Origin: an uncultured archaeon
GTDB lineage: Archaea; Aenigmatarchaeota; Aenigmatarchaeia; GW2011-AR5
Assembly (NCBI GenBank): GCA_964373695.1
Contig: CAYJVT010000009.1
Location: forward strand, 1-34,851
Direction: 5' to 3'
DNA: 34,851 bases
Position numbers and translations under genes: made by a program. How positions within the stretch are numbered: position 1 is the stretch's first letter; the number at the start of each line of letters is the position of its first letter. The notes below the pieces were generated by a model, which did no database searches, had not been told where the DNA came from, and saw only the letters and a program-made list of their open reading frames with translations. Positions 7,901 to 27,961 of this stretch are shown here, piece by piece.

Positions 7901-8701
7901 CTTGCACATAACACCCTTGAAATTCCCGTTCCGCAGCTGCGAGAGCTGGGGTACAACATAGAGAGGCTGAAGTCGAGAAGCGTAATAACCAACGTGGAGA
8001 CGGAGCTGCCGGCCGAGGAAGGGCTCCGCACCGCACTGCGACTCGGAGACTCCGCGCTGATAGTAGGCGAGGTAAGGAGCAGGGAGGCGATAGCGCTGTA
8101 CGAGGCCATGAGAATAGGCGCCCTGGCCAACCTTGTAGCAGGCACCATCCACGGCGAGAGCGCTTACGGTGTCTTTGACAGGGTCGTAAACGACCTCGGA
8201 GTGCCGCCGACCAGCTTCAAGGCCACTGACATAGTCGTCGTGAACAACATGATAAGGTCCCCGGACGGGCTCCGCTCCTTCAGGAGGACTGTCGAGCTGA
8301 CGGAGATAAGGAAGCACTGGTCAAGCGACCCGGTGAAGGAGGGAGGCTTCGTGAACCTCCTGGAGTATTCTGCAAAGGAGGACAAGCTCAAGCCCACGAA
8401 GACTCTTCTTACAGGCGAGTCGGAAATAATAAACGACATAATGTCGAGGGTCCGTGAATGGAGGGGGAACTGGGACGCAGTATGGGAGAACATAATCATG
8501 AGGCAGAAGATACTGCAGTCCCTTGTAAACTATTCGGACGCTTACAGGAGGCCCGACATTATGGAAGCCCAGGCCGTGATAGAATCCAACTCCATGTTCC
8601 ACATAGCAAGCGCCGACGTCAAGGAAGAAACCGGCTCCATGGACAACAGGCTCATATACGAAAGGTGGCATAACTGGCTCGGAAAAAAAGTTAAGCAGTG
8701 A
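4946..8701 (+). CDS. Type IV pilus/Tad assembly ATPase (CpaF/TadA/FlaI/VirB11 family) with N-terminal extension, split by an intein
   Basis: Walker A GTRSSGKT (nt 6308-6331), Asp box IVSLED|TLE, Walker B LIVGEVR and His box GTIHGES. 1251 aa in total, 745 aa after intein removal. Adjacent to a TadB/C-like gene and pilins. Confidence 0.95.
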   Translation: MVFEYDYDEEAQRIRINCIGAISETSVEDYDLCMATTIEKLMEVKRVVRVVLAGSREYEYDFNEAKLLLEIGYAIERIIKERIISMRNVAAREDDMWIQQRYRFLQNFLNRLKYDPIEAYKSLLREIRHSKIKKEKEPDYASKISYQHYINNSLEPIRQILEECELIQIAKPQLTENKNRSLYRKIFHPTIRPNFIYTRYISLPPPDAELLERYRMGDTDVEIYKIKGKLRNLYHVIPPEFRLDENEYTLLDTARRYLGRHEPVEGELSKPENVRENLYRIGLDMIRDIANNNNMQLSEKKLGNLAKILTRYTAGLGILDLILQDDKIQDIAVNSPVGTSPVYIYHADYHECETNIVPSQEDAESWATRFRLSSGRPFDEANPVLDTELEVPGGRARVAAITRTLSPDGLGFSFRRHRDKPWTFPLFIKNRMIDSFSAGLLWFLIDGSRTMLIAGTRSSGKTSFLSSCIVQIMPKIRIVSLEDSVTGDCQIIYERDGKMEKGTVGKLIDDVIKKYGCECDFGRDVLRTNPEKIRVFSMRKDGKFGLSEVSAFIRHMSTKDIFEVTTRMGKKIKVTGDHSLFTLGKNGEIMPVKAGELKIDDYLVTPRKLPFAGGKKEHIDIFDYLEKINNGYFTGRGVEKCLRDNWNEIKKNVARSKRLWWKRKNIITVNFAKNLIKNGYNFDNDIFYKSSSHAKPLPRIIPLTDEMMQFFGLWLADGCYDSHSVIISVVDEYSRACVKNIASQIGMNTKMHSDGISIMINSITLKNLMKIVGFEGDAYTKKVPSWIYHLEKGKKASLLRGLFSGDGYLGKYEASISLVSPELIKDIQTLLLSLGIMSRINKMNEKDKTYSCRIGTVHALKAFRDIGFLQNDRTKKLEEMCSKIPSHDNSDIIPFTAEYKRTIGKSCKNFNSWDYISRGNNIGRQKLLGMVSEIESQDISSRLLMLAESDIFWDQIREIKRLENQECYVYDFSVPECENFVCENILAHNTLEIPVPQLRELGYNIERLKSRSVITNVETELPAEEGLRTALRLGDSALIVGEVRSREAIALYEAMRIGALANLVAGTIHGESAYGVFDRVVNDLGVPPTSFKATDIVVVNNMIRSPDGLRSFRRTVELTEIRKHWSSDPVKEGGFVNLLEYSAKEDKLKPTKTLLTGESEIINDIMSRVREWRGNWDAVWENIIMRQKILQSLVNYSDAYRRPDIMEAQAVIESNSMFHIASADVKEETGSMDNRLIYERWHNWLGKKVKQ
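6395..7912 (+). mobile_element. Intein (506 aa) with LAGLIDADG homing endonuclease
   Basis: Starts at Ser (SVTGD), ends at ILAHN, +1 Thr. Removal restores IVSLED-TLEIPV. LAGLIDADG-like blocks FFGLWLADG and LRGLFSGDG. DNA is AT-richer than the exteins. Confidence 0.95.
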
Positions 8702-8707
8702 CATAAC

Positions 8708-10663
8708 ATGGAAGACAAAGAGAGGGCCGCCAAGATAAAAAAAATAATATCAAGGGAATACAGAATATACAAGGAGGAGGAGGAGATATTCTCGCTTCCG
8801 AGAACGCTTTACGAGAAAGCGTGCAGGATATCGGCGGCGCTCCTCAACCTGAAACCTGACGCCAAGACCAGGAAGAAGCTTGAGGAAGTAATAGAATTCT
8901 CCCACCTCAAGATAACGCCAGCCGGCGTCTCGTCCCTCACCATACTGTTCGCACTTCTCACCACGATACCGACGACATTACTGATTATACTGTCGCTCTT
9001 CACGCCTTTCAACATTCTGCCATTCGGGTACGGGATGCTTCTCATGCTGATGTCGCTGTTCTTCGTGGTCTACCTCTACAACTACCCGTTCTTCCTGAAG
9101 AGAAGATACGAGTCCGAAGTGAGCTCGGAGATAGTGACGATGATACTCTACATGGCGATGTACATGAGGAACAACCCCAGCCTTGAAGGCGCCATAAAAT
9201 TCGCGGCCGACAACCTCTCAGGGCCGATAGGGCTGGAGCTCAAGAAAATGCTGTGGGACGTGGAGGTCGGCAACTACTTCTCAATGCAGGCGGCGCTCCT
9301 GGACTACACGGAGAAGTGGGCGAAGAACAGGGAGTTCGTGCAGGCCGTGGAGCTTCTTATAACATCAATGAAGCAGGTCGGCGAGAAGCGCATAACGCTA
9401 CTTGACGAGACGGTCAACATAGTCCTCGAGGGCAACAGGGAAAGGGCCAAGCACTTCAACCAGAAGCTGAAGCTGCCTGTCATGGTCGTGCACGCCCTGG
9501 GGGTAATACTTCCCGTCATGGGCCTGGTAATGTTCCCCGTCATATCCGTCTTTCTGGGAATAGAGTCGGCAGTTCTTTTCGTCATATACGACGTGCTGCT
9601 CCCATTGATACTCTACTTCGTCATAATGCGCATATCGGAGCTGAGGCCAGCGACGTTCAGCAAGATAGACATCTCCGAGAATCCGGACGTGCCGCCGATG
9701 GGGAAGATAAAGATTGGTAGCAGGCTGGTTTCAGCGTGGCCGATAGCGGCGCTGAGCGCGATACCATTCATAGGGCTCGGTCTGTTCATCAAGCAGTTCG
9801 AGACGGAGGGGATAATAGCGGGGCTCCTGATGCTATTCGGCGTGGCGTTCTCCATTTCCCTCTACAACATACTCCTTTCCAGGAAGAGAATCGAGGTCAG
9901 GGACAAGACAAGGAAGATAGAAGGCGAATTCGCGGAAGCCCTATTCCAGATGGGGAACCAGGTGTCCTCGGGAAAGCCGATAGAAATATCGATAAAGAAT
10001 TCCATGGAGCGCATCAACAACCTCGAGATAAAGAAATTCTTCGACAAGGCGCTGAACAACATAAAGTCGCTCGGCATGACGTTCCAGCAGGCCTTCTTTG
10101 ACAAGGACTTCGGCGCGATAAGGCTCTACCCGTCGAGGATGATAAAGAACATCATGAGGACGGTAGTGGAGTCAAGCAAGAAGGGGGTCAACGTGGCGTC
10201 GAACGCCATGCTGTCAGTTTCAAGATACCTGAAGGGCATCCACTCGACCCAGGAAGAGGTGAGGGAGGAGCTGAGCGAGACCGTAAACTCGCTGAAATTC
10301 CAGCTCTATTTCCTGTCGCCCATGATATCAGGCATAGTCGTGACCCTGGCCATAATAATAATAAGGATACTGAAGTCGCTGTCCGCCAGCCTCGGCGACT
10401 TCCAGAGCATACAGGTCCCGCTCATAAGCCAGTTCGCCAACATCACCGTGACGCCGTTCCAATTTATAATAGTCGTGGGCACATATATCATAGAAACATG
10501 CGTAATCATCTCCATATTCATAAACAACATAGAGAACGGCGACGACCCGATAGGGCGCATGCACACGACGGGTTACTCGCTCCTGATAGGGTTCATCATG
10601 TTCACCGTGTTCACCATGGTAACGCTGATGGTGTTCGGGCCGCTGATAACGACGCTGGTGTGA
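8708..10663 (+). CDS. Pilus membrane platform protein (TadB/TadC/FlaJ, T2SS-F family, duplicated domains)
   Basis: 651 aa with alternating TM clusters and cytoplasmic domains (NPSLEGAI; QVSSGKPIE). Directly downstream of the ATPase. Confidence 0.9.
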   Translation: MEDKERAAKIKKIISREYRIYKEEEEIFSLPRTLYEKACRISAALLNLKPDAKTRKKLEEVIEFSHLKITPAGVSSLTILFALLTTIPTTLLIILSLFTPFNILPFGYGMLLMLMSLFFVVYLYNYPFFLKRRYESEVSSEIVTMILYMAMYMRNNPSLEGAIKFAADNLSGPIGLELKKMLWDVEVGNYFSMQAALLDYTEKWAKNREFVQAVELLITSMKQVGEKRITLLDETVNIVLEGNRERAKHFNQKLKLPVMVVHALGVILPVMGLVMFPVISVFLGIESAVLFVIYDVLLPLILYFVIMRISELRPATFSKIDISENPDVPPMGKIKIGSRLVSAWPIAALSAIPFIGLGLFIKQFETEGIIAGLLMLFGVAFSISLYNILLSRKRIEVRDKTRKIEGEFAEALFQMGNQVSSGKPIEISIKNSMERINNLEIKKFFDKALNNIKSLGMTFQQAFFDKDFGAIRLYPSRMIKNIMRTVVESSKKGVNVASNAMLSVSRYLKGIHSTQEEVREELSETVNSLKFQLYFLSPMISGIVVTLAIIIIRILKSLSASLGDFQSIQVPLISQFANITVTPFQFIIVVGTYIIETCVIISIFINNIENGDDPIGRMHTTGYSLLIGFIMFTVFTMVTLMVFGPLITTLV

Positions 10664-10667
10664 CGGC

Positions 10668-10940
10668 ATGAAGATGTGTAAAAAACTCCATTTTTTGACA
10701 TCCCAAAAGAACAAAGTTCCTTTGAAGAAAGGGATTTCCGACGCGCTCCTGTGGACCATGATAGGCCTTGCCGTGGCGCTGCTGGCGCTGGCGATACTCA
10801 TAGCGATAGCCGGAAGCCAGACTACCCTGGTGAAGGACGACATAGAGATACAGCGCGAGAGTGTATACACGGCGCCCGACATACAGGAACCGTATAACAA
10901 CTGCGAGGAGGCAGACTTTTCATGGAAAGCCTTGAACTGA
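10668..10940 (+). CDS. Type IV pilin-like protein with class III signal peptide
   Basis: LKKG|ISDALLWTMIGLAVALLALAILIAI. An alternative TTG start at 10722 gives MKKG|I. Confidence 0.8.
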   Translation: MKMCKKLHFLTSQKNKVPLKKGISDALLWTMIGLAVALLALAILIAIAGSQTTLVKDDIEIQRESVYTAPDIQEPYNNCEEADFSWKALN

Positions 10941-11263
10941 AGCCCATATTCTACGTAATATTCGGCATCGTCATAACGATAGTCGTCGGCCTCGTCTTAT
11001 GGAACAAGTTCGCGCCTGACGCCAGCCGGGCGTTCTACAATACGGTAACTGGGCCGGGCGGCCTGTTCGGCCTCGCGCTTGCGGGAAGAAGGAAGAAAGG
11101 GATGGAAATGTCCCTTCTTGTGCTGATAATCGGCTCCGTAATAGCCATCACAGTCATATTCCTTGTCATGGGAGGCTTCATAGGCGAATCGGGCGGCGTG
11201 TCAAGCTCTCTCCGCGACTCGTTGACGGATTTCGGCCTCGGAGCCTTGTCCAATATAGGGTGA
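10922..11263 (+). CDS. Two-unit pilin-like protein with internal class III cleavage motif
   Basis: N-terminal MESLELKPIFYVIFGIVITIVVGLVLW helix, then internal RRKKG|MEMSLLVLIIGSVIAITVIFLVM (nt 11087-11104). Confidence 0.85.
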   Translation: MESLELKPIFYVIFGIVITIVVGLVLWNKFAPDASRAFYNTVTGPGGLFGLALAGRRKKGMEMSLLVLIIGSVIAITVIFLVMGGFIGESGGVSSSLRDSLTDFGLGALSNIG

Positions 11264-12159
11264 TACTCATAGAAATACAGGAAATCATGCCAGCAATAAT
11301 CACGGCAGTGATAGTTCTGTTGATAGTGGTAATCTTTTTCATTCCGAAGGAGCTTCTTGCCAGCAGCTACGGCAATTTTACAGGAAAATTTCTCATAATG
11401 CCCAGGGACACCAATATCGAAGTAAAAGAAACTTATCAGGATGCACAAGGGGGCGTAACAGGCTACAGACTAGAAATCCTAACGAGCCTTTCGTACATAA
11501 ACCCCGAATCCCTGAAGGAGGAAAGCGTCAATGTAGTACCGATAGTCCATTTCAAAGGTGGTTCTGTAAGCGGCACCCCGTTCACCATAACCAAGAATGA
11601 CATGATAAGCGGCGCTGGTAGCGTGCGCCAGACTCTGAATCTTGAGGTTCGAACAAACGAGCCGCCGTATAAAACAGAGCAAAACCCATTCTCCGGCGAG
11701 GTGATGGAAAAGCAGGGGCTCGTCATGAAATCCAGCGAAGGCGGGGACTTCCTGGTGAAGCTGGAGAAGTATGATGACACGCGTGTTACACCATGCGAGT
11801 TAGGATTCCGCATCCAGTGCGGGAACACGACGAAAGCGCTGTATCTTGATGAAAAGAACGACTGCATAAATGACGGCGGCCAATACACATGCTTTGAAAA
11901 TACAGAGGCATGCGACGGCGTCGTGCGTATAGAGATGAACGAGAAACCGGACTGCGACGCCAGGAAGAACGCCATGACAATAACAGTGAAAGAGGGGACA
12001 GAGGGCCCGGTGCAGGAGGAGATATCCATAAGCTTCTGGCGCGACGGAGATGAGAAATGTATTGCCGGGGAGACGGACTACAAGCGCCTCACGGCATTGT
12101 GCGGGAAGGACAGGCTCAGCGGTCTGTACCTTTACAGCTTCCCCATGTTCTATATGTGA
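11260..12159 (+). CDS. Pilin-like membrane-anchored protein with Cys-rich extracellular domain
   Basis: N-terminal helix IEIQEIMPAIITAVIVLLIVVIFF, beta-rich body, 8 Cys in the C-terminal half. Start uncertain (GTG 11260, ATA 11269 or ATG 11287). Confidence 0.85.
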   Translation: MILIEIQEIMPAIITAVIVLLIVVIFFIPKELLASSYGNFTGKFLIMPRDTNIEVKETYQDAQGGVTGYRLEILTSLSYINPESLKEESVNVVPIVHFKGGSVSGTPFTITKNDMISGAGSVRQTLNLEVRTNEPPYKTEQNPFSGEVMEKQGLVMKSSEGGDFLVKLEKYDDTRVTPCELGFRIQCGNTTKALYLDEKNDCINDGGQYTCFENTEACDGVVRIEMNEKPDCDARKNAMTITVKEGTEGPVQEEISISFWRDGDEKCIAGETDYKRLTALCGKDRLSGLYLYSFPMFYM

Positions 12160-12203
12160 ACCAAATAAATAAACAGGATATAACTTATTTGGTTCACATA
12201 TAG
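12150..12203. repeat. Perfect 19-bp inverted repeat with 16-nt spacer
   Basis: CTATATGTGAACCAAATAA (12150-12168) and TTATTTGGTTCACATATAG (12185-12203). Overlaps the stop codon at 12157-12159. Confidence 0.9.
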
Positions 12204-12290
12204 TGCCAAAGAAAACTAATATTATGATTGTTTTCTTGGAGCACTATAGACCATGACAAGTATTTATTCTGACGTTTCAAATCAGTATTT

Positions 12291-12935
12291 ATGACCGAGA
12301 TAAGAAGCCTTCTGCTGACGATATTTGTAGGACTTCTTGTGCTTACCGTAATGATACTCATATTCACCCGGGGCAACGAGAGCGCCCTCACGCTGAAGGA
12401 CAGGCTGGAGAAGGCATTTGACAAGGAAAAGTTCACTGTCCACGTTTCCGATGGTACATGCTACGCTGTCGGCACGTCAAGATTCACTGTGTCCGGCATA
12501 GTCCCTGAATACAGGGATTACGTGGCTGAAGGCGGCTCCGTTTCCATTTTATTCACGGTAACAGTCGATGGCAGGGCTGGTTTCAGGCAAGAACTTGACG
12601 ACAATGATGACTATGTTTTGGACAGCAATGAACTGCAGCTTTCAAGCATGTCACCCATAACATGCGAAAGCGACGGAGAGCAGTGCAACTTCCTGCAAAC
12701 TTCAATCGATTTCAATACGGCTCAGAGTGATGTTATTCGCCTGGAGGATGGCGGAGATGTTATTAAATCCAAGAATATTGAGGAAATTCTAACTTCCCAG
12801 CAAAGCATCCACATAAGCGCTTGGAAGGAGGTCGGTCTGGATGCCAACCGCGTCTATCCTGTGACGAATGAAAAGCTCATAGAGCAGAGGGCCGATTTTT
12901 ATCTCGGCAGCTTCATACTAAATACAAGGTGCTAA
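12291..12935 (+). CDS. Pilin-like membrane-anchored protein without basic leader
   Basis: MTEIRSLLLTIFVGLLVLTVMILIF followed by a soluble beta-rich domain. Lies within the pilin cluster. Confidence 0.85.
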   Translation: MTEIRSLLLTIFVGLLVLTVMILIFTRGNESALTLKDRLEKAFDKEKFTVHVSDGTCYAVGTSRFTVSGIVPEYRDYVAEGGSVSILFTVTVDGRAGFRQELDDNDDYVLDSNELQLSSMSPITCESDGEQCNFLQTSIDFNTAQSDVIRLEDGGDVIKSKNIEEILTSQQSIHISAWKEVGLDANRVYPVTNEKLIEQRADFYLGSFILNTRC

Positions 12936-12939
12936 TGGA

Positions 12940-13083
12940 ATGGAAAAGAAAGCGATAGGAATGGCCGTAGGGTTCGTGATACTTGTAGTCCTGATAGCTC
13001 TTGTCGTGATACTGACGAGCAGGAGCCAGGGCGGGTCAATATCAAACCTCGAAACCGCCCTCGGCATAGTGAGGGGTGTCTAG
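12940..13083 (+). CDS. 47-aa micro-pilin with class III signal peptide (not in ORF track)
   Basis: MEKKA|IGMAVGFVILVVLIALVVILTSRSQGGSISNLETALGIVRGV*, with a GGTG SD upstream. Confidence 0.8.
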   Translation: MEKKAIGMAVGFVILVVLIALVVILTSRSQGGSISNLETALGIVRGV

Positions 13084-13203
13084 ATGCGACTGGAATACAT
13101 CGCAGTCGGGTTCATACTGATGCTGGTAGTGCTCATGGTAGTGATATCAATACTTTCTGGCGTGGCTCCGGGTGTTGAATTCATATTCAGCAAGGTGAAG
13201 TGA
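13084..13203 (+). CDS. 39-aa leaderless micro-pilin-like protein (not in ORF track)
   Basis: MRLEYIAVGFILMLVVLMVVISILSGVAPGVEFIFSKVK*. The ATG directly follows the upstream TAG in frame; GGGGTG SD present. Confidence 0.75.
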   Translation: MRLEYIAVGFILMLVVLMVVISILSGVAPGVEFIFSKVK

Positions 13204-14844
13204 ATGGAGGAAAACACACAGGCAATATTCATTGTCATCAGCCTTCTGTTCGTCCTCATAGGACTGACCTTGGTATCGGCGCTGCTGGCAAGCGCCGACC
13301 CCTATGCTTTCATTGCGACCTCGAACACCGAGAAGCTCAGGAATGCGATGGAGCAGGCATGCGGCGGCCAGAACCAGAAGATAAGCTTCTCATTGCCCCA
13401 GAATGTCCCTGCCATGACTTCGATATTTTCATTCGCAACTTCATGGCTCCTTTATGAGGGCGGCGACCCGCATTACACGCTTTATTATGAGATGTTCCCT
13501 GCCGGCGACGCCATAGGATGGGAGTCGTTCCAGAAGTTCAGGCCAAAGTCCCTTGCGTACATAACTGAAGATGCCGCGAACAAACTCGGCCAGCGCGTAA
13601 GCAGTTCGGATGACGTAGACGACTACATGAAAGACGTGAAGAAAAAGCTCGACGACAAGGAAATCGCCACCGACATCATTATATTGAGGAATGTCATACT
13701 GAACAGTGAATTCCCGCATTACCGGAACTACAGGATTGACCGCAGGGAAAAGACGGGCTCCTCTTCGGACGACTTCGTATCCGGCTTCTTCGGGTTCGGT
13801 GAGTGGAAGCGCGTGGACAAGAATGGAAAGCCGCTTGACGGCGACAATTATTTTGAGTTCATCAACTATGACGCACTGCCTACCGAGGAGAAGACGGCGA
13901 TAAAATACATGCCGTGCGGCGACCATTCGCTCTGCCTGAAGACGCGCTCCGGGGTCTACAGATACGAGCTGCCCAACTGCGAGGCACAGGACATAAAATA
14001 CGTTGCGCTTGCGTACGAGGAAAGGAATGTAGTAAAAGGGCTTGCCACAGGTGCTGAATTAACAGCTATTGCTCTGTATCCTCCTGCCAGGGTCCGCGCC
14101 TTAGCAGTCTCAAAATTTGCCTACAATCTCCTGTCAAAAATACCATGGCTGGGAAAGACAATAATAGTCGCCGGAGCGGCATACGGAACCGACAGCATGA
14201 CGAAATACTTTGTGGCGGCTTTCGCCGGATACAAATCATCGGATTTCAGCATCGCGAGCCCGTGCGCCGCTGAAGAAATGGAGGTAACAATGATGAAATG
14301 CGGTGACATTCCGGACGAATACTCGTGCAACAGGATGGAAAAAATACCTATAATGAAGTTCGACAAGGACGACGGGATACTACCAGAGAACCAATACCGC
14401 GAATATCACTATACATGCACGGAAAAATACAATGAAAACTACGACAGCACTTCATCAAATCCGAATATTTTCTCACTTGAATCCGGCGAAATAAGCAACG
14501 ACCAGTGCCTCCTGGTCAAGGTCACCAAACTACCCGAAGGGTACTGCTGGACGCCCGACCCGTATAAGGAGCTTTCACTCGGAGGCGGCATAGATAACCT
14601 GTTCAGAGAACCCGCAACACAGGCAGTTGCAAGGGGCCTGGGCATCACGCCGGTAAGAGAATTCACTTCCTACGTGTATCAGAATATGGAGGGCGTTTCC
14701 CCTGTGACTCTTCTGCTTCCTTGGGTTGACAATGGATTTTTCATCGACAGGTCAGGCGGCCTTGTATCGTGGGGATGGCCGCAACATAAAGGGGAGAGCA
14801 TACTAGGAGACTTCCTCGGACTTCCAGGAATATTCATTAATTAA
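13204..14844 (+). CDS. Large pilin-like surface protein (546 aa) with internal hydrophobic segment
   Basis: N-terminal helix QAIFIVISLLFVLIGLTLVSALLA, scattered Cys, and an internal Ala/Gly-rich hydrophobic stretch at about nt 14029-14229. Confidence 0.85.
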   Translation: MEENTQAIFIVISLLFVLIGLTLVSALLASADPYAFIATSNTEKLRNAMEQACGGQNQKISFSLPQNVPAMTSIFSFATSWLLYEGGDPHYTLYYEMFPAGDAIGWESFQKFRPKSLAYITEDAANKLGQRVSSSDDVDDYMKDVKKKLDDKEIATDIIILRNVILNSEFPHYRNYRIDRREKTGSSSDDFVSGFFGFGEWKRVDKNGKPLDGDNYFEFINYDALPTEEKTAIKYMPCGDHSLCLKTRSGVYRYELPNCEAQDIKYVALAYEERNVVKGLATGAELTAIALYPPARVRALAVSKFAYNLLSKIPWLGKTIIVAGAAYGTDSMTKYFVAAFAGYKSSDFSIASPCAAEEMEVTMMKCGDIPDEYSCNRMEKIPIMKFDKDDGILPENQYREYHYTCTEKYNENYDSTSSNPNIFSLESGEISNDQCLLVKVTKLPEGYCWTPDPYKELSLGGGIDNLFREPATQAVARGLGITPVREFTSYVYQNMEGVSPVTLLLPWVDNGFFIDRSGGLVSWGWPQHKGESILGDFLGLPGIFIN

Positions 14845-14875
14845 AGATTTAATCAAACACTGGCATATTTATCCT

Positions 14876-15262
14876 ATGCACGGCGTCACGAGCATAAAGA
14901 ACTTCATATCCATCGCAATACTCCTCATCATGCTTCTCGGGTTCGCAACCCCCCTTCAGGGGGCTGTCCAGGATTTAATAAACACCGATGCTTCCCTGCA
15001 GGCAGAGCTTCTGTCGTCCAAGCTTAACGTGCTGAGGGCCGCTCCCGACGGCACCAGGACCAGGATATCGCTGCCGGACGCGAAATGCACCGTCAGGTTC
15101 GGGAACAATTTCTTTATCTACATATATGAAAAGACGGGCGCGAAACCGGCGAGCATAGTGAAGGACCTGGTGCAGAATCCGACGGTAATCAACATCCCGG
15201 AGGCTTCGTGCCCTGAATCATTCTTCCTGAAGAAACAAAACGGCATTATATCGGTGGGCTGA
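14876..15262 (+). CDS. Pilin-like membrane-anchored protein
   Basis: NFISIAILLIMLLGF helix followed by an amphipathic alpha segment and a small beta domain. Confidence 0.8.
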   Translation: MHGVTSIKNFISIAILLIMLLGFATPLQGAVQDLINTDASLQAELLSSKLNVLRAAPDGTRTRISLPDAKCTVRFGNNFFIYIYEKTGAKPASIVKDLVQNPTVINIPEASCPESFFLKKQNGIISVG

Positions 15263-16237
15263 ATGGCTGAAAACTTCGACCCTGTATGGATGATAATGTT
15301 CATCGTAAGGATAGTCTTCGCCGTCGGCATTGTATTCTTCATGTCATTCCTCATACTTTCCATAACCATAACACTTGACGACGACGAGCTGAAGAGGTTC
15401 TCACACGAGCTCGCAGAGAACTTGCTGAACTCTGAACTGACAGCAAGCAAGGGCGTGATATCGGAGGCGAAGCTGGAAAGATTCATATCGGATTCTGCTG
15501 AAGTCATAAGGAACAATTATCCTGGCCTTTCAGACGTCCAGAGAAACAGGGTGCTTGGCGATGAATCTCCGCCGTATCCAAATATAGAGCCCAATTTCGC
15601 AAGGCATTGCCTGATAGGATACAGCGCGTACATAAGGGAAATAAACGGCGACGGATTCTGGGAATTCGGATACAGGTCTTGGGGCCTTGAGGAATACGGG
15701 CTTGCAGACGAAAACTTCAAGTCATCCCAGGAAAGCTTCCCGATATCCATAATGAAAGAAGACGGCTCGCTTCGGCAGGCGGAAATGGAGCTGAGGGTTT
15801 TCATAGACCCCATGAGCCGATACTCCTGCCTTGCCGAGAGGGCCAAGGCGGCGAAGGAAAAGCAGGAGCTGGGCATGCCTCTTTGCACTATTTCCAAATG
15901 CAAGGTGTCAATAAGAAATTTTTATGACAAGAATAATTACATATGCGAATTCAAGATAATTACCTCCCCCGCAGGCGGGCCTGAGCCTGAATACACATCA
16001 TGCAGATACGTGCCTGACGTCAGTGTAATACCTTCGTCCTTCACCTACTTGAAAGACGAGAAAAAGAAACTTGTCGCATATCCTGTAAAGGAAGGAGCCC
16101 CATATGCGGATATCATGAGCGACCCTGACAATGCTATGCAACTTTCATTGGAAAACTGCGACTCAATTAAGACAAACCGGATAGCAACCAATACAGACAC
16201 TGTAGGACATGTGGTTTTCTGCATGGAGCCAGGATAA
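15263..16237 (+). CDS. Pilin-like membrane-anchored protein with Cys-containing C-terminal domain
   Basis: MAENFDPVWMIMFIVRIVFAVGIVFFMSFLILSI. The ATG directly follows the upstream TGA in frame. Confidence 0.85.
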   Translation: MAENFDPVWMIMFIVRIVFAVGIVFFMSFLILSITITLDDDELKRFSHELAENLLNSELTASKGVISEAKLERFISDSAEVIRNNYPGLSDVQRNRVLGDESPPYPNIEPNFARHCLIGYSAYIREINGDGFWEFGYRSWGLEEYGLADENFKSSQESFPISIMKEDGSLRQAEMELRVFIDPMSRYSCLAERAKAAKEKQELGMPLCTISKCKVSIRNFYDKNNYICEFKIITSPAGGPEPEYTSCRYVPDVSVIPSSFTYLKDEKKKLVAYPVKEGAPYADIMSDPDNAMQLSLENCDSIKTNRIATNTDTVGHVVFCMEPG

Positions 16238-16238
16238 C

Positions 16239-17108
16239 ATGAAAGGACAGTCATCATTGCCGGAGGACATAGGATGGACGATATTCATAGTCATAGCAGT
16301 CATTTTCGTGGCCATAATATCACTGTCGCTTACTGCAGCATCCAGGCTCGAGAATTATGGGAGGGGAAGCAACCTCGTATATTCCCTGTATTTCGTCAGC
16401 ATATCAACGGAGCCCTACCTTGTCGGCGAATCTCTGTCGTTTTACAGCATAGGCGACAGGCAGTTCTTCGAGCATGCCCTCGAAAGCGCTGTAACGGGCT
16501 CCCTCGAGAGCTCGTCATCATTGAATGTTCCGGCAGAGCTGAAACTGTTCATGGAGGCTTACGAGTTCCGCAGATACATCGTCGAAATAAGGAGCGGCAG
16601 GAAATCCATCTTGAATTTGGATAACATTCTCAGAAAATGCGGTAGCGACTCCAACAACGACAACATCCCTGACGGGATATGCGTGAACAAGTATAACAAC
16701 GACTTCACCTCATGCGGCATAGGCAGGAGTGAGATAGACGATGCCGACGCATGCAGCTTTTACCAGTCATGCTGCACGGATGACTCGTCTGCAGTGCCGG
16801 TCGGCATAACGGTGCAGAGATGCGGGCCGCAGGATGCCGGCATATGCTCGAAGAACCTGGCGCCTCCTACACGCAGGTCAGATATTTTTATACCGACGTG
16901 TATTGATGGCCGGGACTACTATCCCGATACCAAAAATAATTGTAGGGACACAAACAACGGCGAAACACCCGTATGCTGCGTTCCAATAACATCGCAGAAT
17001 CTTGCAGCATCGGAGACAGCAGCTTCTGCAGAAATACCTATGTTCTTCAAAGGAACTTCCGGCTACGACAAGGACTCGGATAGCTCCATAGAGGTGACCA
17101 TAGGATGA
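16239..17108 (+). CDS. Class III signal-peptide pilin-like protein with two 6-Cys modules
   Basis: MKG|QSSLPEDIGWTIFIVIAVIFVAII (classic archaeal KG|Q site) and two C..GIC..C..C..CC repeats. Confidence 0.88.
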   Translation: MKGQSSLPEDIGWTIFIVIAVIFVAIISLSLTAASRLENYGRGSNLVYSLYFVSISTEPYLVGESLSFYSIGDRQFFEHALESAVTGSLESSSSLNVPAELKLFMEAYEFRRYIVEIRSGRKSILNLDNILRKCGSDSNNDNIPDGICVNKYNNDFTSCGIGRSEIDDADACSFYQSCCTDDSSAVPVGITVQRCGPQDAGICSKNLAPPTRRSDIFIPTCIDGRDYYPDTKNNCRDTNNGETPVCCVPITSQNLAASETAASAEIPMFFKGTSGYDKDSDSSIEVTIG

Positions 17109-19369
17109 AGAAGGGGGCCGGCACAACTATAGAGTCCATCATGATACTGATAATTATACTGTTCTTTTTCGCCATATTCCTTGCTCTCATGTCGAAATCG
17201 ACTACCAAAAACGTCCAGCTCAACACGGAAACTCTGGAGCTGTCAAAGCTCTCCAACACGTTCTACCTTCTCAACAGGTCGCTCTACACGACATGGTACG
17301 TGTCGACAGTGCAGACGCTGTTCACGGCAGGATTTGACGGGCTTGGCTGCGGGTTCGACAACACGGCAATGCGGCTGGGATACTGGTACGAAGGCAGGAA
17401 CGGCAACCTGAAGGACGAGAGGAACATACGATTTCCTGTCATAGTGCCCGAAGCCGTGAAGACGGGCGAGCCGTTCTTCATAGAGACGTATGATGTCAAC
17501 GGCGCTTCCGAAACAAGATACGCAAGGATGACATGCAGAATTGGCGAAGAGATGGCAGCACCCGGAGAGATAACAGATACGACATCCGGCTGCACCGAAA
17601 TAGGGCCCGGAAAGGTCGAGAAAATATTCATAGAGACGTCAGTTCCGGCAGACGGCTCCTACAAGATTTTCTCATGCTCTGTCAGCAAATACTCGGACGG
17701 CCAATGCACTGACATTGTGGTAAGGGGGGTGTCTGCCATTGTTGACAGGAATTTCGCGGCCGGAGGCGGCCTGAAGCAGAACCCTGACAGGAAATACACA
17801 TCAGACACAAACGAGGCCTTATGCGTCCCGAACGAGGCCCTGATGTCGCACTTTCTAAACCGGACATTCTCGTCTTACAAGAGCATAAGGAGGACTGCCG
17901 ATGCAAACGGCATAAAGATATACGTCGGAACGGATGACCCTGAGAAGAATTCCGAGAACAACGACATAATATCCGAATTTTTCGTGGGCCGCGACAATGT
18001 CAAGAACCGCGTAAGCCATGAAGTGCGCCTTGAATCGGTTTCGAGCAGAATCGACACAAGCATCGTCCATGACGTGTCTCTGCAGGCAAACTTCTCCGAC
18101 ATGGCCGACAATGCAAGGCAGGCCGTCGGCTACCTTATCACGCTTCGCGACAGGATGACCAGGAATACTGATGAAACCGGACTAATCGATATAGACGGAA
18201 ACCTTGTCTACAGGGACGAAACATTCAACACGGTGACTCTTTATCAGGAATCCGTGCCAGAAACCGATGCAAACGGCAGCCTTGTAAGGGACGGAAACGG
18301 GAATTATGTCCTGACGGCGGGCGACGGCAAATCAAGCTATACGAGCAGAATAAGGGGCGTCATGAACTCGCAGATGCCTTCGGCGCCCAATCTTGACGTG
18401 AGCGTAAAGGAAAACGCCATGTCATTTGAGGCGCTTCCCGGAGAAAGGGGCCTGGCGCTTCATTACGACATTGACGTAAGCTTCTCGGAAAAATCCACGA
18501 AGTCCCGGAGAGAAATTAAAATAGGCCTCCAGAAGGACGCGAGCAAGACATTCGGCTGGCAATGGCCGACCAACAGCAGGAGGATAACAAGCTGCTTCGA
18601 CGAGGCGAGGAAGAACGAGCGCGGCAGCGGCGTTCACAAAGGACTTGATATAGGAAGCAATGAGCCCGGCAATCCGTTATACGAGGACGTGGTATATCCC
18701 AGCTTCCCGAAGGCATCCCTGCCGTTCCCTCTGAAGGTATCTAGAACCAGCGATTCGTGTGCGGCAGGCAGCGAGTCGTGTGGGGGCGGCTACGGGAACT
18801 TCGTCGAGCTCGAATACGACACCGGAGAGGGGAAGATTTACTTCCTGTACGCGCATCTTGAAAGCGTCGGCATGAACGTAGGAGACGAGTTCTATTACGA
18901 GCCGGCAACCAATCCGACGGTTGGCATGATGGGAAACACTGGCCGCTCCTCAGGAAAGCACCTGCATTTCGAGGTGCGGGACGAGGACGGGAACAAGCTG
19001 AACCCGTGCGACTTCATAGACTGCGGCGAAACGACGCTCCGCACATGCGGCTTCAGCGGCACGGACGAGCCCGTGGTCGTGGAGGAAGAAACGGACAGCG
19101 GCTATTATTTTTACGACGACGATTCAAACAGATTCTACAAGAGCCCGATGCAACTCCGAATAAGCGCGGAGGGCTACCTTCCGGCAATCGACTGCATATT
19201 GTATCAAGGCTCCCGCATATTCCTGTGGGAAGGGCAGGATATAATGGCATGTTCAGAAGGAAAGCTATATACATGCGGCGCTGCAAATAATATCCAGGGC
19301 CTTTCAGATGCCCAGAAAATAAGCCCGGGCCAGAACATTCCGGGCATGATAATCTCCTGCGGTGCGTGA
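17105..19369 (+). CDS. Class III signal-peptide pilin-like protein with M23 (LytM/lysostaphin-type) metallopeptidase domain
   Basis: MKKG|AGTTIESIMILIIILFFF. M23 motifs: WPT..ITS.F, HKGLD (nt 18635), GGYGNFV, YAHL, GNTGRSSGKHLHFEV (HLH at nt 18959-18967) and NP. Confidence 0.92.
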   Translation: MKKGAGTTIESIMILIIILFFFAIFLALMSKSTTKNVQLNTETLELSKLSNTFYLLNRSLYTTWYVSTVQTLFTAGFDGLGCGFDNTAMRLGYWYEGRNGNLKDERNIRFPVIVPEAVKTGEPFFIETYDVNGASETRYARMTCRIGEEMAAPGEITDTTSGCTEIGPGKVEKIFIETSVPADGSYKIFSCSVSKYSDGQCTDIVVRGVSAIVDRNFAAGGGLKQNPDRKYTSDTNEALCVPNEALMSHFLNRTFSSYKSIRRTADANGIKIYVGTDDPEKNSENNDIISEFFVGRDNVKNRVSHEVRLESVSSRIDTSIVHDVSLQANFSDMADNARQAVGYLITLRDRMTRNTDETGLIDIDGNLVYRDETFNTVTLYQESVPETDANGSLVRDGNGNYVLTAGDGKSSYTSRIRGVMNSQMPSAPNLDVSVKENAMSFEALPGERGLALHYDIDVSFSEKSTKSRREIKIGLQKDASKTFGWQWPTNSRRITSCFDEARKNERGSGVHKGLDIGSNEPGNPLYEDVVYPSFPKASLPFPLKVSRTSDSCAAGSESCGGGYGNFVELEYDTGEGKIYFLYAHLESVGMNVGDEFYYEPATNPTVGMMGNTGRSSGKHLHFEVRDEDGNKLNPCDFIDCGETTLRTCGFSGTDEPVVVEEETDSGYYFYDDDSNRFYKSPMQLRISAEGYLPAIDCILYQGSRIFLWEGQDIMACSEGKLYTCGAANNIQGLSDAQKISPGQNIPGMIISCGA

Positions 19370-19373
19370 TGTC

Positions 19374-19679
19374 ATGAAAGGAGTTTCGCTAGCGATAGAA
19401 ACGGTGGTGTTCATCATACTCGCCGTGCTCGTCCTGACAATACTGCTGTTCTTCTTCACCAGCCAGTCAGGGCCGGCGCAGCAGGAGATAAGCCTGCAGA
19501 GGCAGCGCGCCGAGATATGCGGCCGGATTGCAACTGCCGACCCCAAGTGCGAGACCTTTACAGGAGTCTCTGGTATGGACAAACTTATAACGACATGCGC
19601 CGGCCTTAAGCTGTGCACAGCCGGCCAAGATAATGAGGCTTGCGTCAAGAAATGCTGCACGATATTCTGCCCTGTGTGA
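19374..19679 (+). CDS. Small Cys-rich type IV pilin-like protein
   Basis: MKG|VSLAIETVVFIILAVLVLTILLFFF, with 8 Cys in the C-terminal half. Confidence 0.88.
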   Translation: MKGVSLAIETVVFIILAVLVLTILLFFFTSQSGPAQQEISLQRQRAEICGRIATADPKCETFTGVSGMDKLITTCAGLKLCTAGQDNEACVKKCCTIFCPV

Positions 19680-20074: not shown

Positions 20075-21436
20075 TTATTTCTCCTTTCTTCTGAAGTCAT
20101 ATAGAAATTCGTCCTTCTTCTTTTTGTGCAGCTTCTGCTGTTTTGGCTGCGTCCATCCCTTTTCCGGATGGTATCCGGTCGGGGAGCCCTGGGGCCAGAA
20201 CAGGTATGCGAGAACCCCGATGATGCCGACGGCAGCAACGCCCGCAACAACATAAACAGGATTGATATCAATTCCCAAGCCGCATGTTCCCGGCGCCGTG
20301 TTCAGTATCTTCTGGTTGAGTTCGTCAAGGCCTTTCGTGACCTCCTCAATAAGGGTGTTTGCCCTGACGTAGTCCTTGGCGTCAAGGTACTCCTGGATTT
20401 TCTTCATCTTTTCTTTTATCTCGTCCCGGTTGCTTTCAAGGAGCTTTACGTCTGTGCACGTCTCTGCGAGGCCTGACACCTTCTTCTCAAGCTCGGAAAG
20501 CCTGGAAGACGCATTGTTGTAATTAGGAATGATTTCTTTCTGCACCGTCTCCTCGGTCGGGATGACAAAGACCTTGAAGCTCATTGAGGTGGATACAGAA
20601 GAGTTGCTCGTAGCAACGTTCGCCGTCACGTCGTACACCTTGGCTGTCGCATCCGAGGGGATTATGAATTCCATTCCGAAGGTCGCGTTGGCATTTATCG
20701 TTATGTTGAGCCTGTCAGGCCCTATGCTCACCCACGATGCTTCAATTCCGGAGACGCTCACGGAGACGTTGAAGAGGGTCCTGTTCCCTGTATTCTTTAC
20801 TACAATGGTTTTCAGCGCCTTTGTCCCCTGGGTTATGTTGAAGTCAGAAAGCGACGACAGGACGCTTATTTTCTGGTTGAAATCGCCGGTGCTTGAGGAA
20901 GAGCCGCCGCTGGATGAGGAGCTTGACGAGGATGATGAAGCGGCGCACGCGCCGGCAGAGCATGTGTTGTTGCTGGAGCATGAAGTGGATGAACCCCATG
21001 TGCCGCTCGAGCATGTGCGGTAGCTCGTCGACGTGTCGCATACAGACGAGCCGGTTGCCGTCGCCGTGCCGTTGTGATAGCAGCTCGTGATGCCAGTAAG
21101 GTTGCACCATCCTGCCCTGCCGCCCCCTCCCGTGCTGTCCCAGTCGAGGAAGCACGCATAGCCGAAGCACTCATATCCATTGTTGCAGTAATCCACCGTA
21201 TAGGCATAGATTCCGGTGACGATTGACACGTTGGATGTGGACATATTAAGCTGGCCGCCCGTTTCCGCAAGCGACGCGGCGGAAGCCGCAATCACTATGA
21301 GCGCCAGTCTGCAAAGAAGCTTCGCTTCTCTGCGGAGACATTTTATAATGTCTCCGAGATGCCAAAAACTCACTTTGAGATTCTGAAAAGTCCTGCCTTT
21401 CAAGAAAATTCCATAATTCATCAGTATCACTATCAT
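20075..21436 (-). CDS. Cell-surface glycoprotein: Cys-rich region, poly-Ser linker, Ig-like (CARDB/NEW3-like) domain, coiled coil and C-terminal TM anchor; start uncertain
   Basis: Signal-like LALIVIAASAASLA, Ser tract, IVVKNTGNRTLFNVSV Ig-like motif, TM VYVVAGVAAVGIIGVLAYLFW and a basic tail. Confidence 0.8.
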   Translation of the reverse strand: MIVILMNYGIFLKGRTFQNLKVSFWHLGDIIKCLRREAKLLCRLALIVIAASAASLAETGGQLNMSTSNVSIVTGIYAYTVDYCNNGYECFGYACFLDWDSTGGGGRAGWCNLTGITSCYHNGTATATGSSVCDTSTSYRTCSSGTWGSSTSCSSNNTCSAGACAASSSSSSSSSSGGSSSSTGDFNQKISVLSSLSDFNITQGTKALKTIVVKNTGNRTLFNVSVSVSGIEASWVSIGPDRLNITINANATFGMEFIIPSDATAKVYDVTANVATSNSSVSTSMSFKVFVIPTEETVQKEIIPNYNNASSRLSELEKKVSGLAETCTDVKLLESNRDEIKEKMKKIQEYLDAKDYVRANTLIEEVTKGLDELNQKILNTAPGTCGLGIDINPVYVVAGVAAVGIIGVLAYLFWPQGSPTGYHPEKGWTQPKQQKLHKKKKDEFLYDFRRKEK

Positions 21437-22716
21437 TCAGAGCGGAACAGGAAATTATACGTAGACGACCAAGAATTTGTTATGATAGTTCCGGTTGGTA
21501 TTATCATCCTCATAACCACATAATACAGCGTGCCTTCGGTGCAGCATCCCTGCACTGGCATCGAATAATTGTAGATATATGTAATGTTCATTATGTTCGT
21601 CCAGTTCGCATTGTCCCTCAAGGAAGCATAAAATCCGTCCCCGGTCGAGTTTGTGAGCGAAATGTTGCCAAGGGCGCTTGTCCAGTTCGTGAGGTTCATC
21701 TGCAGCTTGCCAGTCATGTTGGCCGTGAAATTGAGCGTGAAGTTGAACTCCCAGAAGTCTGTGCCGTTGACAAGGGCTGTGCTTTTCGTTATCGAAACCG
21801 ACGAGACGTTGACAAGCTGCTTCATCGTGACGTTGTTCACGGTGCTGTTCGTTTCTGTCGGAAGGGTCGTGAAGTTCGAGCCGGAAACAGTGGAGTTGAC
21901 GGCAACGCTGACTATCGTGGACGCATTGGTCGTTGCGTTGAAGAACACCTTTATCCTTGGTCCGGCTCTGAGGGTGATGCCGCCGCTTCCGAAAGAAACA
22001 TTCAGGCTCCTGGACGAAGTGGTGGCCGAATAGTCGCTGGAAGCGGCGCTCAGGTTGATAGAATCCTCGACATTAGAGACGTAAGGAGTGCCGAACCCGA
22101 AGGGAAGCGTTATGTTGAAGCCGTATATCCTGTCCAGGCCTTCATATATGAACGAGTAGACAAAGCTCTGGTTTATCACGTTGGTGTCGACATTCCGCGG
22201 CGTTATGGTGCCGTTCACGTGCATATCCTGCACCTGGGCGCTTGACGACTGCGCGCCGAGCGTGGACACGTTGTCAGCCGAGTTGTTCGTAGTCAGGCCG
22301 AAGCTCATGTTAACGGCGAAAGTTGACGTCCTGGTCGCGTTCCTGCTTATGTTTATCTCGACTATCATCGACCTGTTCTGCCACAAAGTGACATTGAATC
22401 CGCCGGAGGGGCTAAGAATAGTATAATTCGTCGTCGTGTTCCACGTAGTGTTTGTCGCTATTATAGAGCCCGTCTCGTTTATCAGCCTCACGAGAGTGAC
22501 ATTCTCTACTCCGACGCCTTTTATGGTTATATTGAGCGATGTGACATTGATATCGGTCGCGGTGGCGTTGAACGAGAGGTTGAGAAAGCTGTAGACAGTT
22601 CTTGTATTAACGTAAGAGGGGGCCAGGCTGGTTCCATTCACTGTAACATTGCCTATGGCAAGCGCAGGGGAGACCAGAACAGCAGCAAATACTATGAACG
22701 CTATCAAAAACTTCAT
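21433..22716 (-). CDS. Secreted, very heavily N-glycosylated surface protein
   Basis: Sec signal MKFLIAFIVFAAVLVSPALA, about 40 N-x-S/T sequons by manual count, beta-rich composition. Confidence 0.88.
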   Translation of the reverse strand: MKFLIAFIVFAAVLVSPALAIGNVTVNGTSLAPSYVNTRTVYSFLNLSFNATATDINVTSLNITIKGVGVENVTLVRLINETGSIIATNTTWNTTTNYTILSPSGGFNVTLWQNRSMIVEINISRNATRTSTFAVNMSFGLTTNNSADNVSTLGAQSSSAQVQDMHVNGTITPRNVDTNVINQSFVYSFIYEGLDRIYGFNITLPFGFGTPYVSNVEDSINLSAASSDYSATTSSRSLNVSFGSGGITLRAGPRIKVFFNATTNASTIVSVAVNSTVSGSNFTTLPTETNSTVNNVTMKQLVNVSSVSITKSTALVNGTDFWEFNFTLNFTANMTGKLQMNLTNWTSALGNISLTNSTGDGFYASLRDNANWTNIMNITYIYNYSMPVQGCCTEGTLYYVVMRMIIPTGTIITNSWSSTYNFLFRSE

Positions 22717-27448: not shown

Positions 27449-27895
27449 TCATCTTTTCTTTATTTTGACCTCGGCGATATCCCCCAGCGTCAATTCAGGC
27501 GTTTTAGCGGAAGTTTTTTTCTCTGTCACGTATTCAGCACCAAGCAGTTTTATGCTCAACACCTTTTCCAGGCGCTTTGCAACCTCATCCGTCGGCCGCA
27601 TGCCTTTTTCGATCCTATGCATAACTGAAGCTGGGACTGAAATTCTCCCTGCAAGCTCCTCAATCGACACACCAAGAGACTTCCTGGCGTCCCTGACTAA
27701 CGATGCGAAGTCCGGATCTATAACATTCTCTTTTATCTCATGCTCGCGGGATTTCCTGGCCGGCAAGGCAACGGACTCCTCCACAATGCTGCCGAATTTT
27801 GCGCATCTCTCGCATACATGGAGCAGCGTGCCCTCAACCCGAGCTTTTTTCAGTCCCTTAAAAGAGCCGCACATCTCGCACTCGATATAAATCAC
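27449..27895 (-). CDS. mbf1: Archaeal multiprotein bridging factor aMBF1 (zinc ribbon plus HTH)
   Basis: CEMCG...VEG..LHVCERCAKFG ribbon, Cro-type HTH (ARKSLGVSIEELA..MHRIEKG) and C-terminal TLGDI. Confidence 0.95.
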   Translation of the reverse strand: MIYIECEMCGSFKGLKKARVEGTLLHVCERCAKFGSIVEESVALPARKSREHEIKENVIDPDFASLVRDARKSLGVSIEELAGRISVPASVMHRIEKGMRPTDEVAKRLEKVLSIKLLGAEYVTEKKTSAKTPELTLGDIAEVKIKKR

Positions 27896-27961
27896 CAGGA
27901 TAATAATTATATTCCTGCAAGAATTTTAAACCTTTATCAAGAAGTTATAATAAGTGTATCT

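Follow-up and report, generated by a model that had tools for sequence, protein, structure and literature searches.

Type IV pilins in which a prepilin-type N-terminus is joined to a grafted functional module are known from bacteria only: Streptococcus sanguinis PilB carries a vWA module and PilC a lectin module, and the survey published with them counted 264 modular pilin architectures, some of them with modules predicted to be peptidases, S74 and M26 (Raynaud et al. 2021, PMC8179133). Here we compare with these and other described systems a protein of 754 amino acids (aa) that is encoded at positions 17105-19369 on the + strand of a 34,851-nucleotide (nt) stretch of DNA (contig CAYJVT010000009.1, assembly GCA_964373695.1) from an uncultured archaeon of the Aenigmatarchaeota, a DPANN lineage; the whole stretch is called the window, and its positions are used throughout. 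The protein belongs to a family, here called carriers, whose members hold murein hydrolase domains as cargo. As in the S. sanguinis pilins, the carrier consists of an N-terminal prepilin-type module and a grafted functional module and is encoded in a pilus locus, and the argument made for the bacterial proteins (PMC8179133), that bulky modular subunits sit at the filament tip, applies to it as well. The bacterial modular pilins bear the IPR012902 motif, whereas the carrier is archaeal and has a KG-type leader for an A24 archaeal peptidase; it is also much larger, its cargo lies between a stalk and a C-terminal domain and is restricted to murein hydrolases, and its pilin fold and assembly are putative.

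Minor pilin complexes at filament tips, GspI-J-K in type II secretion and CofB/TcpB in type IVb pili (as summarised in PMC8179133), offer a second likeness, one of arrangement: a large subunit joins a smaller pilin-like protein through its helix, as the carrier is predicted to do through the extracellular part of its own. Among archaea, Woldo and Danwoldo of Halogranum salarium are peptidoglycan hydrolases that kill bacteria (PMC12352652). Woldo is like the carrier in that a murein-free archaeon has an intact M23 (or glucosaminidase) domain that would be aimed at bacterial walls, and in that the catalytic domains have been shuffled in evolution; however, Woldo is soluble, is secreted by the twin-arginine (Tat) pathway, has two PG_binding_1 domains and is patchily distributed, whereas the carrier has a prepilin-type N-terminus, no wall-binding domain and a fixed operon slot and is near-universal in its lineage. 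Large GH23 lytic murein transglycosylases of Woesearchaeota and other DPANN archaea have been read as a means of attack on bacteria (Vigneron et al. 2022, PMC9723730, citing the AR20 genome). The carrier family likewise comprises DPANN murein hydrolases, with SLT in 34 of 52 members; pilins, pili and M23 are not mentioned in that paper. The Sulfolobus bindosome, finally, consists of sugar-binding proteins that have a class III signal and are not filament subunits, and a survey of type IV filaments in archaea, published in 2026, describes binding proteins, and no hydrolases, that bear class III signals (PMC13705601). Bindosome and carrier are alike in that type IV filament machinery is repurposed through a prepilin-type signal coupled to a functional domain, but the bindosome cargo is substrate-binding domains for uptake, encoded beside ATP-binding cassette transporters, whereas the carrier cargo is wall-degrading enzymes encoded inside a filament operon.

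The literature on DPANN, pilins, peptidoglycan and hydrolases combined yielded no paper that connects murein hydrolases with pilin-like proteins of archaea. The locus had been put forward, from the window sequence, as a candidate for an undescribed system, and this is right only in part, as modular pilins, archaeal M23 hydrolases and DPANN murein hydrolases have all been published.

The carrier and its M23 domain

The start codon of the open reading frame (ORF) overlaps the upstream stop codon (ATGA), with GAGGTGA a few bases 5' of the start, and the product opens with MKKG and AGTTIE followed by a hydrophobic run of about 25 residues. An AlphaFold2 model built from 51 sequences, with a mean predicted local distance difference test score (pLDDT) of 85.7 and a predicted template modelling score of 0.81, replaced a model from 7 sequences (pLDDT 57.8). 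The following parts were distinguished:

17105-17116, + strand: leader MKKG (residues 1-4), with a putative prepilin-peptidase site after G4; K3 and G4 are kept in at least 90% of 51 members
17114-17335, + strand: long N-terminal helix (residues 4-77) in AlphaFold2 model m6da421a4e605, its membrane part at about residues 5-30 and then a conserved extracellular part
17213-17305, + strand: most conserved segment of the helix (residues 37-67, NTFxLxNRSL..TW..S..Q), which in a complex prediction forms the interface with the upstream protein
17423-17770, + strand: beta-sandwich like immunoglobulin (Ig), FN3 and PKD domains (residues 107-222), Z 8-9 against FN3, PKD and Ig domains
17813-18517, + strand: alpha/beta stalk domain (residues 237-471), the second conserved carrier block, from the model and recurring profile positions of about 220-450
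18557-19024, + strand: M23 metallopeptidase domain (residues 485-640), from Pfam, Foldseek and structure comparison
19076-19366, + strand: Cys-rich C-terminal beta domain (residues 658-754), a constant part of the carrier, conserved in all members including those without cargo

By sequence and by predicted fold, the 754-aa protein has an intact M23 domain, a putative murein endopeptidase. It matches Peptidase_M23 (PF01551) at 40.4 bits against a cut-off of 28.7 (E 3.4e-10), and the Zn ligands H511, D515 and H621 and the catalytic H584 and H619 are all present, in the motifs HKGLD (H511 to D515, nt 18635-18649), YAHL (residues 582-585 with H584, nt 18848-18859) and HLH (H619 and H621, nt 18959-18967). 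All five residues are kept in 35 of the 42 M23 domains of the carrier family, in which C635 and C640 are invariant and further Cys pairs occur within the domain. When the predicted model was compared with solved structures, the domain superposed on 8tzl_E over 125 residues (Z 17.0, root mean square deviation 1.7 A) and scored Z values of about 12.7-16 against LytM, StM23, Csd3, lysostaphin and ShyA-type enzymes; the Foldseek probability for the M23 fold was 1.00, and pLDDT lies mostly at 79-97 across residues 511-640. It is the only M23 domain in the genome. The original prediction had described the ORF, its coordinates and its N-terminus correctly and had called the M23 domain intact with HKGLD, YAHL and HLH, which the Pfam score, the five residues and the fold match bear out; the limits it gave for the domain, 18557-19020, agree with those of the structural domain.

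Outside the M23 domain, the model places a helix ahead of beta-rich domains, with block pLDDT values of 74-95 over residues 11-100. Within the conserved helix segment S59, L60, T63, W64, S67 and Q70 are near-invariant. The beta-sandwich is an insert limited to the close clade of the window protein and is missing from the aligned homologs P0006 and P0007. Many cysteines are invariant across the carrier, among them C697, C716, C724 and C752 of the C-terminal domain, and such a pattern would suit an extracellular protein. For the C-terminal domain, structure comparison and a language-model atlas returned no fold or family match. Searches with Foldseek against PDB, with VIA and in the atlas gave nothing usable for residues 1-106, 223-480 and 645-754, the matches being dominated by the M23 and Ig-like domains, and the missing matches are no evidence of new folds. 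With the N-terminus, the atlas gave leads only: small hypothetical proteins of Aenigmatarchaeota, Woesearchaeota and Nanobdellota, at scores of 0.88-0.90.

MKKG is followed by AGTTIESIMILIIILFFFAIFLALM, that is, a short basic leader with [KR]-[GA] directly before a hydrophobic helix. This arrangement recurs in the family: 103 of 108 N-termini have [KR][GA] somewhere in the 14 residues that precede the hydrophobic run (median leader 4 residues), the motif stays beside the helix even in members with N-terminal extensions of up to 44 residues, and the 51 members in which K3 and G4 are so widely kept share just 24-32% identity with the window protein. Because the motif keeps its position relative to the helix across the family, the N-terminus appears to be class III-like. 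The class III signal of the original prediction thus finds support at the family level, to which the filament operon slot and a genomic A24 prepilin peptidase add (PF01478 on contig C22, 31 bits against a cut-off of 26.5, in an intact ORF of 276 aa). The N-terminus of the 754-aa protein has no twin-arginine motif and no Sec or Tat signal. One distant homolog, P0007 (L007:3583-3648), was called from an internal Met; its upstream frame reads a basic stretch ending in RKG and then a helix and has no evident ATG, GTG or TTG start, so that its start codon may be unusual.

Exchangeable cargo, inheritance and target

A family profile was built from the N-terminal and stalk part, with M23 left out, and searched against 1.84 billion proteins. 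At least 116 representative clusters match, and for 59 the E value is 1e-30 or lower; in most, the match takes in profile positions 2-101 and one further block, and the proteins are about 400 to 1340 aa long. Full-length homologs with 27-81% identity keep the N-terminal motif, the conserved helix segment, the five M23 residues and the Cys-rich tail, from which it follows that the layout of M23 with a pilin-like N-terminus is not a chance one. What varies is the enzyme. Pfam domains were tallied over 52 carrier members, as follows:

SLT: 34 of 52
M23: 21 of 52
Amidase_2: 4 of 52
Lysozyme_like: 3 of 52
CHAP: 2 of 52
Amidase_3, VanY, Glucosaminidase, Peptidase_M15_4 and NlpC/P60: 1 of 52 each

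The same variation is seen at a single position in the genome. The carrier gene is the penultimate one of a co-oriented row that comprises an ATPase, a platform protein and then about ten ORFs that each open with a hydrophobic helix; five of these ORFs, the carrier included, have K-G directly before the helix. The cargo at this operon slot, read in 10 genomes of the window's family or order, was as follows:

M23: 3 of 10 genomes
SLT: 1 of 10
Amidase_3 with M23: 1 of 10
SLT with Amidase_2: 1 of 10
none recognised, in proteins of 257-487 aa: 3 of 10
none recognised, in a protein of 1087 aa: 1 of 10

The carrier, with its KG leader, 74-residue helix, stalk and Cys-rich C-terminal domain, is thus the constant part of a lineage-specific family, and the hydrolase is inserted after the stalk and ahead of the C-terminal domain. 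The bonds cut by the cargo enzymes are the glycosidic bond between N-acetylmuramic acid (MurNAc) and N-acetylglucosamine (GlcNAc), the MurNAc-L-Ala amide and peptide bonds of D-amino acids, and pseudomurein and S-layers have no such bonds. Because the same carrier holds SLT, amidase, CHAP, NlpC/P60, VanY/M15 or glucosaminidase domains in relatives, the target is, judging from these domain assignments, very probably bacterial murein. This spectrum is the strongest argument for a murein target and goes well past what a single M23 domain can tell. The target named in the original prediction was a bacterium or a pseudomurein-walled archaeon; the cargo of the relatives supports the first and speaks against the second.

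No genes for murein or pseudomurein synthesis were found in the lineage, as represented by the window genome (1.02 Mb, 91% complete) and 31 family genomes. A genome search found no Mur ligase in the window genome, and with Mur ligases absent from it we set aside as unlikely a role in remodelling the archaeon's own wall. A single ORF of 390-446 aa with a Mur-ligase fold occurs in 4 of the 31 family genomes (G206, G214, G133 and G018); murein-free control archaea also match the Mur-ligase model, and these ORFs probably encode a FolC-like or other non-murein ligase.

Matches to the carrier profile were obtained in 14 of the 15 genomes searched from the window's family and in 7 of the 13 from other families of its order; the remaining phylum gave 1 match in about 172 genomes. 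The closest homolog, at 81% identity, comes from a metagenome-assembled genome (MAG) named Candidatus Aenigmarchaeota by NCBI, and the five related loci returned by a pattern search of a genome collection all belong to Aenigmatarchaeota MAGs from groundwater and a hot spring. In a phylogeny of the M23 domain, 41 of the 42 family domains fall in one clade under midpoint rooting (Shimodaira-Hasegawa-like approximate likelihood ratio test support 95 in a set of 39 rows), and the one left outside belongs to a 1614-aa member, as its second cargo. It follows that the cargo is an old inheritance, neither a recent transfer nor a contaminant. The nearest M23 domains outside the family are those of bacterial LysM-M23 proteins, at E 5e-12 or worse, and these weak hits, together with the single clade, rule out a recent bacterial donor, a possibility raised with the original prediction; as the tree has 138 columns and its outgroups are the best hits to the window domain, statements on a deeper donor are not justified.

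M23 is typical of bacteria and phages, and with bacterial proteins as its nearest outside relatives one might suspect a bacterial or viral fragment that was mis-binned or chimerically assembled, but we see next to no chance of this. The order ATPase, platform, p299a, p546, p128, p324, p299b, carrier, p105 is common to 12 other genomes of the window's family or order, several metagenome contigs also hold the carrier operon, and such synteny across independent assemblies refutes an artefact; the outside M23 matches are weak, the G+C content is even across the window, and the operon is flanked by archaeal-type genes, namely an intein-bearing isoleucyl-tRNA synthetase, a histidyl-tRNA synthetase and a PIN-KH ATPase. 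A chimeric or bacterial contig, which had been named beforehand as fatal to the interpretation, is excluded on these grounds.

Possible roles of the carrier at the cell surface

The account that we favour, with some reserve, is that an extracellular carrier with a prepilin-type N-terminus presents an active M23 enzyme that cuts the murein of a contacted bacterium. The genomic A24 peptidase would remove MKKG, and the mature protein would bind its pilin-like neighbours by way of the extracellular, conserved stretch of its helix; the bulky complex would then be placed at a pilus tip or form a short surface pseudopilus. M23 would cut the peptide cross-links in the peptidoglycan of a bacterium touched by the archaeon, and this could either open the wall locally for attachment and uptake or release wall fragments as food. 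That the lineage works on bacterial walls by contact is probable; the pilus tip, the attack on prey or a live host and the cross-domain host, all of which figured in the original prediction, are points that we infer. A "retractile" pilus, also proposed there, finds no support, as the operon has a single ATPase and no PilT-like partner was seen.

A complex prediction for carrier residues 1-480 with p299b, the Cys-rich pilin-like protein encoded immediately upstream, bears on the assembly step. Its score, a measure of model confidence, was 0.71, whereas the best of three controls had 0.00; the mark is reached by 58 of 80 solved complexes and by 2 of 110 mismatched pairs. The prediction used alignments made for this analysis, so this calibration holds just roughly, which counts against the proposed assembly. 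Agreement between runs is 64% of contacts or more, the partner has a pLDDT of 68 or above, and the predicted interface on the carrier comprises residues 37-67 and 257-274. Binding of this kind would explain the strong conservation of the extracellular helix segment 37-67, and the prediction fits a hetero-oligomer of pilin-like proteins.

Several other observations speak against a murein-cutting pilin. No curated pilin or class III signal model in Pfam or NCBIfam matches the window protein, its neighbours or the 51 members, up to E 1; such models are short and overlook many archaeal pilins. Nor was any solved pilin matched by sequence, a search of PDB sequences with the N-terminal profile being empty at E 10. 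The helix of residues 4-77 exceeds the usual pilin alpha-1 in length, and a KG motif followed by a helix could equally be an uncleaved signal anchor. No recognised peptidoglycan-binding domain was found with Pfam, at E up to 1, in the window protein or the 51 family members. Finally, all cultivated DPANN are reported to have archaeal hosts (PMC11291902).

A serious alternative, even if we think it unlikely, is a surface complex used in foraging and not a pilus tip, in which a short pseudopilus like the Sulfolobus bindosome, or a set of membrane-anchored proteins, would hold murein hydrolases at the archaeon's own surface and obtain amino sugars and amino acids from the wall remains of dead bacteria, without attacking live cells. 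That archaeal binding proteins outside filaments can bear class III signals is established (PMC13705601), and no match to a pilin model or pilin fold was obtained, the fold searches being filled largely by the M23 and Ig-like domains. In related genomes, very large surface proteins encoded away from the operon bear murein hydrolase domains too (SLT is clear in ORFs of 1464-2035 aa, and one of these has M23 as well), which fits general wall foraging, as does a small genome that relies on supply from outside. However, anchoring alone would hardly call for machinery as heavy as an ATPase of its own, a platform protein and some ten pilin-like genes, and the retention of the scaffold without cargo suggests a structural role in an assembled organelle. 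Less is to be said for an antibacterial weapon used in competition or defence, shed or displayed like Woldo of Halogranum and without a trophic or host relation, which we consider improbable. Such genes are usually patchy, whereas the carrier is vertically inherited and present in nearly all genomes of the family, and it has neither wall-binding domains nor Sec or Tat signals and is part of a filament operon; these features outweigh, in our judgement, the resemblance of its module swapping to the evolution of bacteriocins and lysins and the experimental killing of bacteria by an archaeal M23 hydrolase (PMC12352652).

It is more improbable still that the M23 domain acts not on bacterial murein but on pseudomurein, on the S-layer or a Gly-rich protein of an archaeal host, or on the archaeon's own envelope during pilus assembly. 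Some M23 enzymes, such as LasA and beta-lytic protease, do cut proteins, and the window protein itself carries M23 only. Archaeal hosts of known DPANN (PMC11291902) would also suit such a target. The absence of murein and pseudomurein synthesis genes from the lineage stands against it. So do the orthologous carriers, which hold SLT, MurNAc-L-Ala amidases, VanY/M15 D-Ala-D-Ala peptidases and a glucosaminidase, cargo for bonds that by established biochemistry are lacking in pseudomurein and S-layers.

To our knowledge, no host of any member of the Aenigmatarchaeota is known. With the target most probably bacterial murein, the carrier family is a concrete molecular lead that the partners or prey of this lineage are bacteria, and with it the "modular pilin" principle would come to include archaea as well as cargo enzymes that degrade walls. 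The carrier is conserved, vertically inherited and encoded in a pilus operon, and all that varies in it is the enzyme, drawn from a set in which each member cuts another peptidoglycan bond. The type of cargo may mark the kind of wall attacked. A wider proposal, that a whole order of Aenigmatarchaeota lives on or preys on living bacteria by means of a type IV filament whose tip complex carries an exchangeable murein hydrolase and opens the wall where the cells touch, is possible but doubtful; if true, this would be the first apparatus for cross-domain contact between DPANN and bacteria, with the type of cargo tuned to the wall chemistry of each host.

The operon and other loci

The remaining genes of the operon are these:

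4946-8701, + strand: type IV filament ATPase with an intein and a LAGLIDADG endonuclease (Pfam T2SSE, Intein_splicing, LAGLIDADG_3), the head of the conserved operon
8708-10663, + strand: platform protein T2SSF (Pfam E 1e-6), with 46-65% identity in relatives
10668-16237, + strand: row of helix-starting ORFs p90, p113, p299a, p214, p546, p128 and p324 (ORF calls), several with a KG site; the order of p546, p128, p324 and p299a is kept in relatives
16239-17108, + strand: p299b, the upstream Cys-rich pilin-like protein, which starts with MKG; beside the carrier gene in all genomes examined
19362-19679, + strand: p105, a small downstream pilin-like protein with ..MKG and then a hydrophobic helix; after the carrier gene in 11 of 12 loci

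None of the seven proteins from p90 to p324 has a curated family match. The best conserved unannotated protein of the operon is p546 (13204-14844), which has no KG site, is found in 12 of 12 loci at 23-34% identity and may be a core structural part of the apparatus. The invariant cysteines of p299b include two CC pairs, its orthologs begin with MKG and a helix in most genomes, and it matched no known family. As further T2SSE-type ATPases are encoded elsewhere in the genome, it has more filament loci than the pilus operon.

About 16 kb from the best T2SSE ATPase match of the genome, contig C2 holds at 12969-18053 (L038:970-6054) an ORF of 1694 aa with Ig-like and PKD-like repeats, whose lysozyme-like matches lie below threshold (SLT_3 at 24.8 bits against 27, SLT at 16.1 against 21.3). 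It was considered as a second carrier and rejected, as it has no pilin-like N-terminus and all of its lysozyme-like hits are sub-threshold.

Inteins interrupt both the pilus ATPase (4946-8701) and the isoleucyl-tRNA synthetase (27740-32425), that of the ATPase with a LAGLIDADG homing endonuclease; going by the spacing of matches, relatives hold the ATPase both with and without the insert. Directly after the operon lie two convergent genes on the minus strand, 20075-21436 and 21433-22716, whose products, of 453 and 427 aa, have N-x-S/T sequons at high density and may be glycoproteins of the S-layer or the cell surface. One of the two has a Ser-rich linker and a C-terminal membrane anchor, and the pair is also found behind the operon of L003 and that of the P0005 contig.

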